From contig DASPQV010000025.1 of NCBI GenBank assembly GCA_035624785.1, positions 285,323 through 349,322 on the forward strand: a stretch of 64,000 bases of DNA. The letters are read 5' to 3'. Shown piece after piece: positions 54,860-60,606 of this stretch. Position numbers and translations under genes: made by a program. Position 1 is the stretch's first letter, and each line of letters starts with the position of its first letter. The notes beneath the pieces are model-generated. The model was not told the origin of the DNA. It searched no databases and saw only the letters and a program-made list of their open reading frames with translations. Source of the DNA: Candidatus Binatia bacterium (GTDB lineage: Bacteria; Chloroflexota; Dormibacteria; Aeolococcales; Aeolococcaceae).

Positions 54860-56782
54860 GTGCCCAGGGCGCGCAAGGGGGACGGTTACTACGCGGAGTC
54901 GCTGGAGGCGCTCAAGGGGCTGGAGCCCGTCCGCCGGCGCCCGGGAATGTACATCGGCTCCACCGACTCCCGGGGACTCCACCACCTCATCAACGAGATC
55001 GTCGACAACTCCATCGACGAGGCCATGGCGGGGCACTGCGACACCATCCTCGTCACCCTGCACGGCGACGGATCGGTGTCCGTGCTCGACAACGGGAGGG
55101 GCATCCCGGTGGACATGCACCCGACCGAGAAGAAGGTGGGCCTGGAGATGGTGCTCACCGAACTGCACGCCGGCGGCAAGTTCGGCGGCAGCGGGTACAA
55201 GATCTCGGGTGGACTCCACGGAGTCGGTGCCTCCGTCGTCAACGCCCTCAGCGAGCGCCTGGTCGCCGAGGTGTACCGGGACGGCCGGGTCCACTGGCAG
55301 AGCTACCGCCGGGGCGTGCCCGAGGGGCCGATGGAGGTGCTCGGGACCACGCCGCTGCGCGGCACATTGATCCGATGGTGGGCAGACCCGCAGGTCTTCC
55401 CCGAGCGAACCTACAACTGGGAGCTGATCACCAACCGGCTCCGTGAGCTGGCCTTCCTCACCAAGGGCGTGGCGCTGACCCTCCATGACGAGACGCGCGG
55501 CTTCCGCTACAGCTTCTACTTCGAGGGTGGGATCCGCGCCTTTGTCCGCCATCTCAACGCCAGCCGGAGCGTGGTCAACGTGCGCCCGATGTACGTGGAG
55601 CGCGAGATCGAGGGCAACATCGTCGAGATCGCGGTGCAGTACCAGAACACCGCCTTCACCGAGCACGTCCTCAGCTACGCCAACAACATCAACACCGAGG
55701 AGGGCGGCGCCCACCTCACCGGGTTCCGCTCCGCGCTCACCGCCACCCTCAACAAGTACGCCCGCAAGGCCGGGATCCTCAAGGAGCAGGACCCCAACCT
55801 GAGCGGCGACGACGTTCGGGACGGCCTGACCGCGGTGATCAGCGTCAAGCTCCGCGAGCCCCAGTTCGAGGGCCAGACCAAGACCAAGCTGGGCAACAGC
55901 GAGGTGACCGGCCAGGTCTCGACGGTGCTGAGCGACGCGCTCATGCAGTACCTGGAGGAGAACCCCGCCGACGCCAAGCGGATCGTGGATCAGTCGCTGA
56001 CCTCGGCCCGGGCCCGCCAGGCCGCGGCCCGGGCCCGCGAGCTGGTCCAGCGCAAGTCGCTGCTGGAGTCGACGACCCTGCCCGGCAAGCTCGCCGATTG
56101 CAGTGAGCGCGACCCCGAGCATTGCGAGCTGTTCATCGTGGAGGGAGACAGCGCCGGCGGCTCCGCCAAGCAGGGCCGGGAGCGGCGCAACCAGGCCATC
56201 CTGCCGCTCCGCGGCAAGATCCTCAACGTCGAGAAGGCGCGGGCCGACAAGATCCTCAGCAACGAGGAGATCAAGAACCTGATCACCGCGCTGGGCACCG
56301 GCTTCGGGGACGGCATGGACCTCGCCAGGCTCCGCTATCACCGGATCGTGCTGATGGCGGATGCCGACGTCGACGGTTCGCACATCCGCACCCTGCTGCT
56401 CACCTTCTTCTGGCGCCATCTGCAGCCGGTGGTCCAGGGCGGCTATCTCTACCTGGCTCAGCCGCCGCTCTACAAGCTGAGCAAGGGCACCGGCAAGCAG
56501 CAGCGGGTGGACTACGCCTACTCGGACCCGGAGCGCGACGCCAAGCTCAAGGCGATGGGCGGCAAGGTCGACGTCCAGCGGTACAAGGGGCTGGGCGAGA
56601 TGAATCCCGAGGAGCTGTGGGAGACCACCATGGACCCGGCCCGGCGGATCCTGCTCAAGGTCTCGGTGGAGGATGCGCTCAAGGCGGACGATGTCTTTGA
56701 TCGCCTCATGGGCTCGGACGTGGAACCGCGCCGCCGCTTCCTCCAGACCCATGCCCGCTCCGTGCGCAACCTCGACGTATGA
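54860..56782 (+). CDS. gyrB: DNA gyrase subunit B (short form, 640 aa)
   Basis: GHKL ATPase motifs '[12 protein letters not shown]' and 'DNGRGIP', '[14 protein letters not shown]', and Toprim '[18 protein letters not shown]...[12 protein letters not shown]'. GTG start. Confidence 0.95.
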
Positions 56783-56968
56783 CACGCCTGCGGCGGGCCA
56801 GCGGAGAGGAGCTGTCACGATTTCGGACGCGCATGTGCGGGGCGCGGTTGGAAGGAGCGGGCCCGTGACTGCTGTCGAACAGCCTGGGTTCGACCCCGCG
56901 CCTCGCGGCGCGGTGGGCTCGCGGCGGGATCGCTTGCTGACGGTGTCCCTGGTGGAGAGGCTGCGCTG

Positions 56969-58147
56969 ATGCCCGCCCCGATCCGGGTCGCCGTGGACGT
57001 GATGAGCGGGGAGAATGACCCCCGGGCCGCGGTCTGGGGCGCCCTGGAGGTGGTGGCCGACGGCGACGCCCACGCTCTCCTGGTCGGCGTCACCGAGCGC
57101 ATCCAGGCCGAGTTCGACGCCTGGCGGGCAGCCCATCCCAGCGCCGCCCAGAGGGCTGGCCAGCGGCTGCGGTCAGAGGTGGAGATCGTCCCCGCCGCAG
57201 ACGTCATTGGCATGGACGAGCACCCCGCTCAGGCCGTCCGCGGCAAGCGGGACGCCAGCGTCGTGGTGGCCACCAGGCTGGTCCGCGAGGGCCGGGCCTC
57301 GGCGGCGGTCTCGGCCGGCAACAGCGGCGCCACCTTCGCGGCCGCGCTCTTCACGGTGGGGCGCGTCGCGGGGGTCGACCGGCCCGCGATCGGCACCGAT
57401 CTGCCCACTCCCACCGCGACCACGTTCCTGATCGATGCCGGCACCAATGCCGACTGCCGCCCGGAGTGGCTCCTCCAGTTCGGGATCATGGGCGCGGTCT
57501 ACGCCCGCCTCATGAAAGGGGTGGAGCGGCCCCGGGTCGCCCTGCTCAGCAACGGGGAGGAGCCCGACAAGGGATCTCGCCTGGTCCAGGAAGCGCACCG
57601 CCTCCTCCTCGGCTCGCCGCTGGAGTTCACCGGCAACGTCGAGGGACACAGCCTCCTCACCGGGATCTGCGACGTGGCGGTCACCGACGGGTTCACCGGC
57701 AACGTGGTTCTGAAGACGGCGGAGGGGGTCGCCGAGTTCCTCTTCGGAGCGATCTCCCGCGAGGCCCGGAGCTCGCTGACCGGCAGGGCCGGCGGAGCGC
57801 TGCTCAAGCCCCGGCTCCGGCCTCTGCGCGACCGGGTCGACTATCGGAAGACCGGCGGGGCGCTGCTCCTGGGAGTGGCCGGAGAGGTGGTGATAGCCCA
57901 CGGGAGGAGTGACGCCGAGGCGATGGCCAACGCCATCCGGGTGGCGGTCAGAGCCTCCCGCCAGGGCCTGTCGGCCCAGATCGCCGAGGCCCTCCGCGCT
58001 CTGCCGGGCGAGCGGCCGGGAGACCCGGAAGGTGGAGGTCGGGGCGGAGGCGCCGCCGATGGAGGGGGCTCGACGGCCCCGGTGGCGCGCCGGCGATCCC
58101 CGGCCGGCTCCAGGCGGACCGGCGCCTCGAGGAGCACCACCGCATGA
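56969..58147 (+). CDS. plsX: Phosphate acyltransferase PlsX with low-complexity C-terminal tail
   Basis: '[14 protein letters not shown]', '[11 protein letters not shown]' and '[13 protein letters not shown]' PlsX motifs. Its stop TGA overlaps the gyrA ATG (ATGA). Confidence 0.85.
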
Positions 58148-60606
58148 GCGTCTTCCACGCCGGCGACATCCGTCCCGTCGACATCGAGCAGGAGATGCGG
58201 CAGAGCTACCTGGACTACGCGATGAGCGTGATCATCAGCCGGGCCCTGCCGGATGTCCGGGACGGCCTCAAGCCGGTGCAGCGCCGCATCCTCTACGCGA
58301 TGCTCCAGGAGGGCATCACCGCGGGGGCCAAGACCAAGAAGTCGGCCTCGATCGTCGGCGAGGTGATGAAGAACTACCACCCTCACGGCGACCAGGCGAT
58401 CTACGACACGCTGGCCCGGCTGGTCCAACCCTGGGTGATGCGCTACCCGCTGGTGGTCGGGCAGGGCAACTTCGGCTCGGTCGACGGCGACCCGCCGGCG
58501 GCGCAGCGCTACACCGAGGCCCGGATGTCAGCGGTCGCGATGACCCTGGTGGAGGACATCGACAAGGACACCGTCGACATGGAGGAGACCTATCTCGCCG
58601 ACCCGGCGATCCTCCAGCCGGCCGTCGTCCCCGCCCTCCTGCCCAACCTCCTGGTCAACGGGGCCAGCGGGATCGCGGTCGGCATGGCCACCAACATCCC
58701 GCCCCACAACCTCGGAGAGGTCTGCGAGGCCCTGGTCCGGCTCATCGACGAGCCCGAGATGACCACCGAGGACCTGGTCAAGATCATCCCCGGCCCCGAC
58801 TTCCCGACCGGCGGGCTGATCTACAGCCGAGACCTGGCCCAGGTCTACGGCACCGGCCACGGCCGGATCGTGATGCGGGCCCAGGTGGAGTTCGAGGAGT
58901 CCAAGACCGGGCGAGAGCAGATCATCGTCCGCGAGCTCCCCTACCAGGTCAACAAGGCACGCCTCCTGGCCAGCATCGCCGAGCTGGTCAACGACAAGAA
59001 GCTGGAGGGGATCGCCGCGCTCCGGGACGAGTCGGGGCGCTCGGAGAGCACCCGGATCGTCATCGAGCTCAAGACCAACGCCCGCCCCCACACGGTGCTC
59101 AACAACCTTTTCAAGCACACCCAGCTCCAGTACACCTTCGGGGCGCTGATGCTGGCCCTGGTCGACGGCCGTCCTCAGATCCTCGGCCTGAAGGCCATCC
59201 TGGAGCACTTCGTCGACTTCCGGCGCCGGGTGGTGACCCGGCGGACCCGGTTCCTGCTCACCCGAGCCCGGGAGCGAGCCCACATTCTCGAGGGCCTGCT
59301 CAAGTGCCTCGACCACATCGACGAGGTGATCGCCCTGATCCGCGCTGCCCAGGACGAGAAGGCAGCCCAGTCAGCCCTCGAGGAGCGCTTCCAGCTCACC
59401 GAGCGGCAGTCCAAGGCGATCGTCGACCTCCGCCTGGGCCGGCTCACCCGCTTGGAGTCGGGGAAGATCCGCGACGAGTACGAGGACCTGATCAAGGAGA
59501 TCGCGCGCTACGAGGACATCCTAGCCAACCCGCGGCTGGTGGACCAGCTCATCAAGGACGAGCTGGCCGACCTCCGCAAGCGGTTCGCCGACCCCCGCCG
59601 GACCGAGATCCGAACCACCGAGGTGGAGATCTCCGAGGAGGACCTGATCCCCCGCGAGAAGGTCTTCGTCACGCTCACCCACCGCGGCTACGTCAAGCGG
59701 ATCCCGCTGGACAGCTACCGGGCCCAGCACCGTGGTGGGCGCGGAGTGGTGGGCGCCAAGCGCTCCACCGAGCAGGACTACGTCGAGCACTCGACAACCG
59801 CCTCGACCCACAGCGACATGCTCTTCTTCACCAACCGAGGACGGGTATTCCGGCTGCGCACCCACGAGATCCCGGACGTCAAGCGCCAGGCCAAGGGCCT
59901 GCCGGTGATCAATCTGATCGAGATCGACCAGGGCGAACGGATCACCGCGCTGATCGCCGTGGAGGGATTCTCGGACGAGCAGTACCTGGTCATGGTCACC
60001 AAGCTGGGCCAGATCAAGAAGACGCCCTCGGCGTCGTACTCCTCGGTGCGGCGCAACGGGCTGATCGCCATCAACCTGCAGGCCGATGACGAGCTGGACT
60101 GGGTCCGCATCTCGAGTGGCGGCGACGAGTTGCTGGTGGTGACCAGGCACGGCAAGGGGGCGCGGTTCTCCGAGAAGGAGGTGCGGCCCATGGGCCGCGA
60201 CACCATGGGGGTGGGGGCGATCCGGCTCCGCCCCGGCGACGAGGTGGCCGGGTTCGACGTGGTCAACCCGCGCGGCCACGTCCTGGTGGTGACACAGCTC
60301 GGCTACGGCAAGCTGACCCCGATGGAGGACTACCCGCTCAAGAGCCGCAACATCCAGGGCGTCTACACCATGGATCAGAACGCCATCCCCAAGGTCGGTG
60401 AGATCGTCGGGATGCGGGTGGTCGAGGATCGCACCGAGGAGCTGATGGTGATCTCGACCATGGGCCAGGTGATCCGCATCCCGCTCGAGCAGGTACGGGT
60501 GTCGGGGCGTCAGACCCGCGGGGTCATCATCATGCGGCTCGCCGAGGGGGACCAGGTCGGCTCCATCGCCGGGGTGGCCCGCGCCGGCGACCTGGAGGCG
60601 GATTGA
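58144..60606 (+). CDS. gyrA: DNA gyrase subunit A
   Basis: Active-site region '[10 protein letters not shown]', QRDR-like '[11 protein letters not shown]' and the C-terminal beta-pinwheel repeats. Confidence 0.95.

Follow-up and report, generated by a model that had tools for sequence, protein, structure and literature searches.

We analysed a 64-kb window (the whole stretch of DNA presented here, numbered from its first letter) from a metagenome-assembled contig that is named Candidatus Binatia at NCBI. Its two DNA gyrase genes, gyrB and gyrA, enclose plsX, which encodes a phosphate acyltransferase of membrane-lipid synthesis. All three open reading frames (ORFs) lie intact on the same (+) strand in a six-frame ORF list of the window, at the coordinates given by the initial annotation. 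That annotation had described a complete plsX nested between the gyrase genes with its stop codon overlapping the gyrA start, and both descriptions are borne out, the former by the ORFs and their equivalog scores and the latter by direct reading of the sequence as a true 4-nt overlap. The genes and the overlap are:

54860..56782, + strand: gyrB, DNA gyrase subunit B, 640 amino acids (aa); TIGR01059 at 917.5 bits (cut-off 882.4); Pfam HATPase_c, DNA_gyraseB, Toprim and DNA_gyraseB_C
56969..58147, + strand: plsX, phosphate acyltransferase, 392 aa; TIGR00182 at 320.9 bits (cut-off 243.4); core at residues 1-344, tail at residues 345-392 (DNA ~58001-58144)
58144..60606, + strand: gyrA, DNA gyrase subunit A, 820 aa; TIGR01063 at 1065 bits (cut-off 877); six DNA_gyraseA_C blades
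58144..58147, + strand: overlap of the plsX stop and the gyrA start, ATGA, 4 nt, read as ...acc gca TGA / ATG agc...

Identities were assigned by NCBIfam equivalog cut-offs, and gyrB, plsX and gyrA each scored above their own. The gyrB product stayed below the cut-offs of both topoisomerase IV models (parE_Gpos, 748 against 899.95; parE_Gneg, 604 against 723) and is thus GyrB rather than ParE; the gyrA product likewise stayed below the parC cut-offs, and is thus GyrA. The GyrA translation contains the catalytic tyrosine motif AAQRYTE and the sequence QHRGGRG, which we take to be a GyrA-box-like motif. Third-position G+C (GC3) of the three ORFs is 0.90-0.95, as for real genes in this window of 72% G+C. 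In the quinolone-resistance-determining region of GyrA (residues ~80-90), the position that presumably corresponds to Escherichia coli Ser83 is Gln, with Ser or Ala in relatives; as read from the sequence, this could confer naturally reduced fluoroquinolone sensitivity.

Gene order was scored by tblastn with the window proteins in a plsX-centred scan of species-representative genomes, which gave at least 80 loci (numbered with L below) and sampled part of the Dormibacterota species. Since a plsX-centred sample is blind to gyrase pairs without plsX, we added a gyrB-centred scan of metagenome contigs. The order gyrB-plsX-gyrA, with or without fabF between plsX and gyrA, was present in the window and in 21 related loci (L003-L007, L015, L016, L019-L022, L024, L039, L051 and L083-L088). 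Fourteen of these, L003 to L051, have gyrB-plsX-(x)-gyrA, where x is an optional gene, and 11 of the 14 carry a Dormibacter-type label. The metagenome relatives L083-L085, with PlsX 73-79% identical to that of the window, have the same order as the window and share the neighbourhood RecJ-aconitase-HNH-LigD, then, divergently, gyrB-plsX-gyrA-DUF5679-bactofilin-methyltransferase-EF-G. L086-L088 (GyrB 87-88% identical) all have LigD divergent from gyrB-plsX(-gyrA). The gyrB-centred scan contained only three close relatives and is a weak test for a second gyrB copy; all three agree.

Among the ~60 plsX loci listed from other phyla, which include Chloroflexota, Actinomycetota, Bacillota, Desulfobacterota, Nitrospirota, Acidobacteriota, Campylobacterota and others, plsX adjoined both gyrase genes in none. 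Nor did it adjoin gyrB in any of the 77 gyrB loci that are more distantly related, five of which have gyrB followed directly by gyrA. Across about 135 plsX- or gyrB-centred loci of other phyla, the full order did not occur. L028 is a partial exception with gyrB-plsX only: this 3.3-kb contig, labelled Thermomicrobiales, carries gyrB, 114 nt and plsX (L028:1-1767), with no gyrA within 1.6 kb. In a neighbour-joining tree of PlsX, the gyrase-linked copies except that of L028 formed one clade beside Chloroflexota, divided into a sub-clade with fabF and one without; the L028 protein fell outside this Dormibacterota clade and grouped with Chloroflexota (L054). The L028 fragment may have been mis-binned, or its gyrB-plsX linkage could have arisen independently or be older.

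The nearest homologues of the window PlsX among the matches listed (58-79% identity) are mostly named Candidatus Dormibacteria or Dormibacteraeota. The initial annotation had proposed checking gene order in relatives, and had named a single ancestral arrangement shared by relatives among the outcomes that would undo its reading; the same order proved to run clade-wide through Dormibacterota, and this part of its reading does not hold. As judged from the sampled loci, gyrB-plsX-gyrA is the inherited, ancestral gene order of Candidatus Dormibacterota and not an oddity of one genome.

Taxon labels conflict within the clade. The window source is 'Candidatus Binatia' at NCBI, and three relatives with the same operon (L007, L015 and L019) are labelled Chloroflexia, Baltobacterales or Chloroflexi; the FabF of such conflictingly labelled relatives is 87-90% identical to that of Dormiibacterota-labelled loci. 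A genuine Binatia locus, L077, has the canonical order DUF177-rpmF-plsX-fabD-fabG and a PlsX only 42% identical to that of the window, and the Binatia label of the window source is therefore probably wrong.

Two further observations concern gyrB in these scans. In L004, L005 and L006 (~8.1-10.0 kb, long-read metagenome-assembled genomes (MAGs) of the MFD series), the gyrB frame was split into two tblastn pieces; we considered genuine breaks or pseudogenes and read them instead as assembly frameshifts, probably at homopolymers. In 14 unrelated metagenome loci with GyrB ~49-51% identical to that of the window (L111, L117, L118, L120, L121, L127, L130, L133, L134, L137, L148, L151, L152 and L159), gyrB is followed on its own strand, 2-5.5 kb downstream, by an rpmF-like gene, a recurring neighbourhood in some other lineage.

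The optional gene was identified in L015, L016, L019-L022 and L024, where ~1.25 kb between plsX and gyrA encode beta-ketoacyl-ACP synthase II (FabF; TIGR03150 at 564-595 bits, cut-off 494); in L016 there is a 4-nt overlap between the plsX stop and fabF. Of the related loci, these stand furthest from the window, with GyrA identity of 57-61% versus 69-89% for loci without fabF. Other lipid-synthesis neighbours were missing: tblastn found no rpmF, fabH, fabD or fabG within 10 kb in the Dormibacterota loci, and fabF only in this deeper sub-clade. Probes from canonical loci placed rpmF directly upstream of plsX in ~35 listed loci of other phyla, and five Anaerolineae loci (L035, L037, L040, L060 and L081) have plsX-fabF with neither rpmF nor gyrase genes.

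Because the deeper sub-clade has gyrB-plsX-fabF-gyrA and some Anaerolineae have plsX-fabF alone, we infer that the two genes were nested ancestrally as a pair. The simplest history, by parsimony, would start in the Chloroflexota/Dormibacterota stem, where plsX and fabF would already have formed a pair separate from rpmF. This pair would have become nested into gyrBA in the ancestor of Dormibacterota, and fabF would later have been lost from the gyrase site in the sub-clade of the window, leaving gyrB-plsX-gyrA. A gene for a GNAT-family N-acetyltransferase would also have been added at the 3' end in the window genome.

The junctions within the cluster are short in most loci. The distance between plsX and gyrA is -4 to +7 nt in every locus of the fabF-less sub-clade. 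Genes in bacterial operons meet most often in a 4-nt ATGA overlap, so that of the window is unremarkable by itself. It is preceded by a Shine-Dalgarno-like sequence, GAGGAG, 9 nt upstream of the gyrA ATG and within the codons of the plsX tail. Between gyrB and plsX the distance across the clade is -4, -1, 8-12, 29 or 57 nt, and the outliers are L085 (109 nt) and the window, which has a spacer specific to its lineage:

56783..56968, + strand: gyrB-plsX spacer, 186 nt; replaced in L083 and L084 by a 1-nt gyrB/plsX overlap, and 109 nt long in L085

The spacer is unconserved, folds no better than its shuffles (z = +1.23) and contains no TAnAAT hexamer. Two candidate functions for it were rejected. 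A relay of small ORFs (56779-56868 and 56865-56969, joined by ATGA / GTGA / TGATG, with the L085 spacer tiled by one ORF) was dismissed as chance, a complete chain arising in 9% of dinucleotide shuffles for the window and 98% for L085, and the peptides being unconserved. A structured RNA or riboswitch, in the spacer or elsewhere in the window, was dismissed for want of an Rfam match at gathering score and of a spacer fold better than shuffles.

At the other end, the cluster is extended 3' by one gene, with 4 nt (TTGA) shared between its TTG start and the gyrA stop and with identical coordinates in an independent gene call:

60603..61067, + strand: GNAT-family N-acetyltransferase, TTG start; Pfam Acetyltransf_1, E = 1.3e-14

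No NCBIfam model scored above its cut-off for this product (the best was ArsN2, 35.9 bits), and tblastn found the gene in none of the related loci, as for a lineage-specific addition. In L085 a BTAD/AAA regulator occupies the same position, and the site right after gyrA is thus variable.

Upstream of gyrB, alignment of the clade revealed a single strongly conserved block, CTGGTAnAAT, which contains the candidate promoter of the whole cluster:

54673..54681, + strand: extended -10 promoter-like element TGGTAAAAT, about 185 nt upstream of gyrB; proposed from conservation
54682..54859, + strand: putative 5' leader, ~180 nt, from the -10 element to the gyrB start; length set by the promoter position

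The motif TGnTAnAAT occurs once in the 64 kb, at this element. The shorter hexamer TAnAAT occurs three times in the window (within 54673-54681; at 51323-51328, - strand; and at 61286-61291, - strand), each time in an intergenic position just upstream of, and oriented to, a gene (gyrB, the HNH endonuclease gene and DUF5679, respectively). All 17 clade loci with upstream sequence have exactly one G.TAnAAT 25-266 nt before gyrB; the loci contain 1-4 such hexamers in total per 10-21 kb, and none lies on the coding strand inside the clusters over 95 kb. The element was recognised by conservation, the promoter model not being one validated for Dormibacterota, and a generic sigma-70 scan returned no promoters. 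The putative leader is poorly conserved save for short blocks common to close relatives, and has no Rfam match. A terminator scan returned only weak hairpins within coding sequence, one of which, after the GNAT gene, lies inside the opposite-strand DUF5679 gene; we found no convincing terminator within the cluster and no clear one after it.

By strand, by short or overlapping junctions and by an order kept across divergent genomes, the cluster has the properties of an operon, with the 186-nt gyrB-plsX spacer of the window as the exception. Tight junctions, one conserved -10 element upstream of gyrB and none inside the cluster make the initially proposed co-expression of plsX with gyrase plausible; they speak for, without proving, a single transcript that has a ~180-nt leader. 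In the mechanism we propose, one mRNA would run from TGGTAAAAT through the leader across the cluster. Ribosomes ending plsX would restart at the overlapping gyrA ATG, aided by the GAGGAG in the plsX tail codons, and translation of gyrA may thereby be coupled to plsX termination. One membrane-lipid enzyme is probably placed under the gyrase promoter in this way, and its synthesis would then depend on the signals that regulate the gyrase genes. In the bacteria studied so far, these signals are growth rate and DNA relaxation; the supply of PlsX in Dormibacterota may, by analogy, follow gyrase expression. TAnAAT hexamers are very rare for this window of 72% G+C, and their placement upstream of genes suggests that TGnTAnAAT, or TAnAAT, is usable as a -10 consensus for Dormibacterota promoters.

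The enzyme itself looks conventional. Residues 5-335 of PlsX match profile positions 1-322 of 324 of PF02504 (FA_synthesis), as expected of a full-length PlsX, and the solved structures 1VI1 (Bacillus subtilis, E = 2.5e-69), 6A1K and 1U7N match end to end (E = 1e-60 to 1e-69). AlphaFold (AF2) modelled the core (residues 1-343) with confidence, at per-residue confidence scores (pLDDT) mostly of 87-98 (about 90) and of 67-83 in a helical hairpin at 241-290. More than 100 columns are invariant in an alignment of 17 clade members. The ratio of non-synonymous to synonymous substitution rates (dN/dS) is 0.14-0.34 for plsX versus 0.05-0.16 for gyrB and gyrA, indicating purifying selection that is slightly more relaxed. 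The best-supported reading of these sequence comparisons is an ordinary functional acyl-ACP:phosphate acyltransferase that would feed PlsY. A plsY gene (PF02660, L001:20135-20809) follows plsX on the same contig at a distance of ~9 kb, ~3 kb past the right end of the window; it is not in that position in L083, and plsX-plsY proximity is thus unconserved. As a separate feature, the sub-clade of the window has a ~20-aa insertion at PlsX residues ~47-70 relative to other Dormibacterota and to B. subtilis PlsX, which AlphaFold modelled confidently as helices (42-70).

The Gly/Arg/Pro-rich C-terminal tail, put at ~60 aa in the initial annotation, measures 48 aa beyond the PlsX fold (345-392; G 27%, R 17%, A 15%, P 10%; net charge +4). 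From residue 354 on, the model shows no secondary structure and pLDDT drops under 50. Even close relatives differ in the length and sequence of the tail; tails of 30-50 aa occur only in the closest relatives of the window, and most PlsX proteins of the clade have 337-343 aa and no tail. A functional, conserved tail was rejected on these grounds. The tail is most likely low-complexity drift in a genome of 72% G+C, and incidentally carries the gyrA ribosome-binding site.

Taken together, these observations make it likely that the cluster is the form which the gyrase operon takes in Dormibacterota, with a plsX that was nested ancestrally, is co-transcribed with the gyrase genes and encodes an ordinary enzyme. 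Two alternatives would deny that the order is ancestral. The contig is metagenome-assembled and one NCBI record gives it the conflicting name 'Binatia', as might be the case had a chimeric assembly or faulty binning put plsX between the gyrase genes. The same plsX nevertheless occurs on a Logan contig from an independent dataset, and the order recurs in 21 loci from many studies and sequencing platforms; an artefact of sequencing or assembly, which the initial annotation had also named among the circumstances that would undo its reading, is effectively ruled out by these two facts. Composition is also uniform across the junctions, and overlapping stop and start codons are not expected from a chimeric join. 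Hardly more credence is due to the idea that plsX entered gyrBA recently and in this genome only, by insertion or horizontal transfer. plsX does normally sit elsewhere, and in the window genome the 186-nt spacer is unusual and the cluster ends in a GNAT gene found in none of the related loci, but the order is kept in relatives down to 57-62% GyrA/GyrB identity, G+C and GC3 of plsX match those of its neighbours, and the gyrase-linked PlsX copies except L028 form the one clade beside Chloroflexota that vertical descent predicts.

Other alternatives accept the order and differ on what it does. The gyrase-linked PlsX might have taken on a gyrase or chromosome role, for example as a membrane tether through its Arg-rich tail, with a separate housekeeping plsX elsewhere. 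The long retention of an unrelated enzyme gene inside an essential two-subunit operon, the net charge of +4 on the tail and the fact that PlsX is a peripheral membrane protein would fit such specialisation. Against it stand the equivalog score above cut-off, the at least 100 columns invariant across the clade, the company of the lipid-synthesis partner fabF in the older form, and a tail, predicted as disordered, that most relatives lack or have in another form; among the Dormibacterota-labelled matches listed there was no second type of plsX. We rate this role as very unlikely. The genes might instead be neutral neighbours expressed independently, from unrecognised internal promoters of plsX, gyrA or both and with no regulatory coupling. 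Spacers of 186 nt before plsX in the window and 109 nt in L085 leave room for this, the E. coli fab cluster uses several internal promoters (PMC3896788), and the promoter types of Dormibacterota are uncharacterised. In most relatives, however, gyrB and plsX overlap by 1-4 nt or lie 8-12 nt apart, the spacer of the window is unconserved, and no -10-like hexamer lies in 95 kb of clusters, yet one stands upstream of gyrB in every locus. Since gyrA starts inside plsX, its promoter would have to lie in coding sequence. Independent expression is accordingly an unlikely account, if one still to be reckoned with. A stronger form of coupling is improbable in our estimate: that the first committed step of phospholipid synthesis, ancestrally together with FabF elongation, is coupled to gyrase through a supercoiling- or growth-sensitive promoter, or that PlsX is physically associated with gyrase at the membrane.

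Several points weigh against the operon interpretation as we favour it. L028 has gyrB-plsX with a PlsX outside the clade, and the history may be more complex than a single insertion. FabF identity between Dormibacterota and Anaerolineae is 47-50%, like that with other phyla, and it is parsimony that argues for the ancestry of fabF at this site. The consensus promoter scan was empty, and conservation, not a validated Dormibacterota model, is what singles out the -10 candidate; the 186-nt spacer could hold an internal promoter invisible to the TAnAAT criterion. Co-transcription, finally, is read from sequence signals only.

The surroundings were taken from Pfam annotation of the GC3-supported ORFs of the window and from the source contig gene table. 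Directly upstream of gyrB and outside the operon lies a divergent gene whose identity as ligD, as the initial annotation had it, is confirmed by Pfam and NCBIfam:

51597..54551, - strand: ligD, 984 aa, with phosphoesterase, ligase and primase-polymerase domains

A divergent upstream ligD is also present in L003-L007 and L083-L088, and not in the sub-clade with fabF. The genes before ligD encode two-component systems, glycosyltransferases, FtsH, an ABC transporter, MoxR/VWA proteins, RecJ, a UDG-like protein, aconitase and an HNH endonuclease; from ligD onward the order is LigD, divergent from gyrB-plsX-gyrA-GNAT, then DUF5679, bactofilin, methyltransferase and EF-G. No dnaA, dnaN, recF, rpmF, fab gene, second plsX or parE/parC was found across the 64-kb window, and no Rfam family matched anywhere in it. 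The gyrase locus thus lies outside the dnaA-dnaN-recF context, as first noted, none of the three being among the window ORFs or in the gene tables of L001, L083 and L084. Equally, plsX lies away from the rpmF-plsX-fab cluster that most other sampled phyla have: tblastn found no RpmF, FabH, FabD, FabG or FabF in the window, and the locus does not belong to that canonical cluster. Separately, a 175-aa HNH endonuclease gene (50789-51316, - strand) lies directly downstream of ligD, a pairing kept in the close relatives L083 and L084, with RecJ and the UDG-like gene a few kb on; no Ku gene was seen in the window.

Operons of gyrB and gyrA are established in Gram-positive bacteria and Actinobacteria, for example B. 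subtilis, Mycobacterium tuberculosis and Mycobacterium smegmatis, and the gyrBA promoters of Gram-positives and mycobacteria respond to DNA relaxation. The Dormibacterota cluster resembles them in having both subunits on one strand, gyrB first and presumably a promoter and leader upstream of gyrB. It differs from them in nesting plsX or plsX-fabF between the subunits and in having a divergent ligD as upstream neighbour instead of dnaA-dnaN-recF. We know of no described gyrBA operon with an unrelated nested gene, and full-text literature searches brought up neither such an operon nor an earlier description of the gyrB-plsX-gyrA order.

For plsX, co-transcription as rpmF-plsX-fab is canonical (PMC5049393, PMC3896788), and the E. 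coli transcript has been interpreted as a way of coordinating membrane synthesis and the capacity for translation (PMC5049393, PMC3896788, both citing Podkovyrov & Larson 1995). Like the yceD(DUF177)-rpmF-plsX-fabH-fabD-fabG-acpP-fabF cluster of E. coli and many other bacteria, the Dormibacterota locus joins plsX to a core gene of a different process. Here, however, the partner is DNA gyrase instead of ribosomal protein L32, fabH, fabD, fabG and acpP are absent, and fabF is present only in the deeper sub-clade. That sub-clade also resembles the Anaerolineae pairs in having plsX directly followed by a fabF of the TIGR03150 class with no rpmF upstream, whereas the Anaerolineae plsX-fabF loci have no gyrase genes within 10 kb. 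The novelty here lies in lipid-synthesis genes nested inside a gyrBA operon; neither the ATGA overlap nor the tail is out of the ordinary, and no new mechanism is demanded.

The position of plsX may bring a regulatory benefit; it may equally be a frozen accident, kept only because splitting an essential operon is costly, and if so the finding matters mainly for taxonomy and annotation. The gene order is an easily scored marker for Candidatus Dormibacterota, which separates the phylum from Chloroflexota and flags mislabelled MAGs, and TGnTAnAAT is a candidate promoter consensus for an uncultured phylum. The operon is also a rare case of an unrelated metabolic gene kept within the operon of a two-subunit essential enzyme over phylum-scale time. 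Were the stronger coupling true, it would connect chromosome topology with envelope growth in a way not known before, and selection would have kept this connection across a whole phylum. More generally, the arrangement offers a testable hypothesis: that the initiation of membrane-lipid synthesis may be expressed with gyrase in these slow-growing soil bacteria, in parallel with the link between rpmF-plsX and the ribosome in E. coli.

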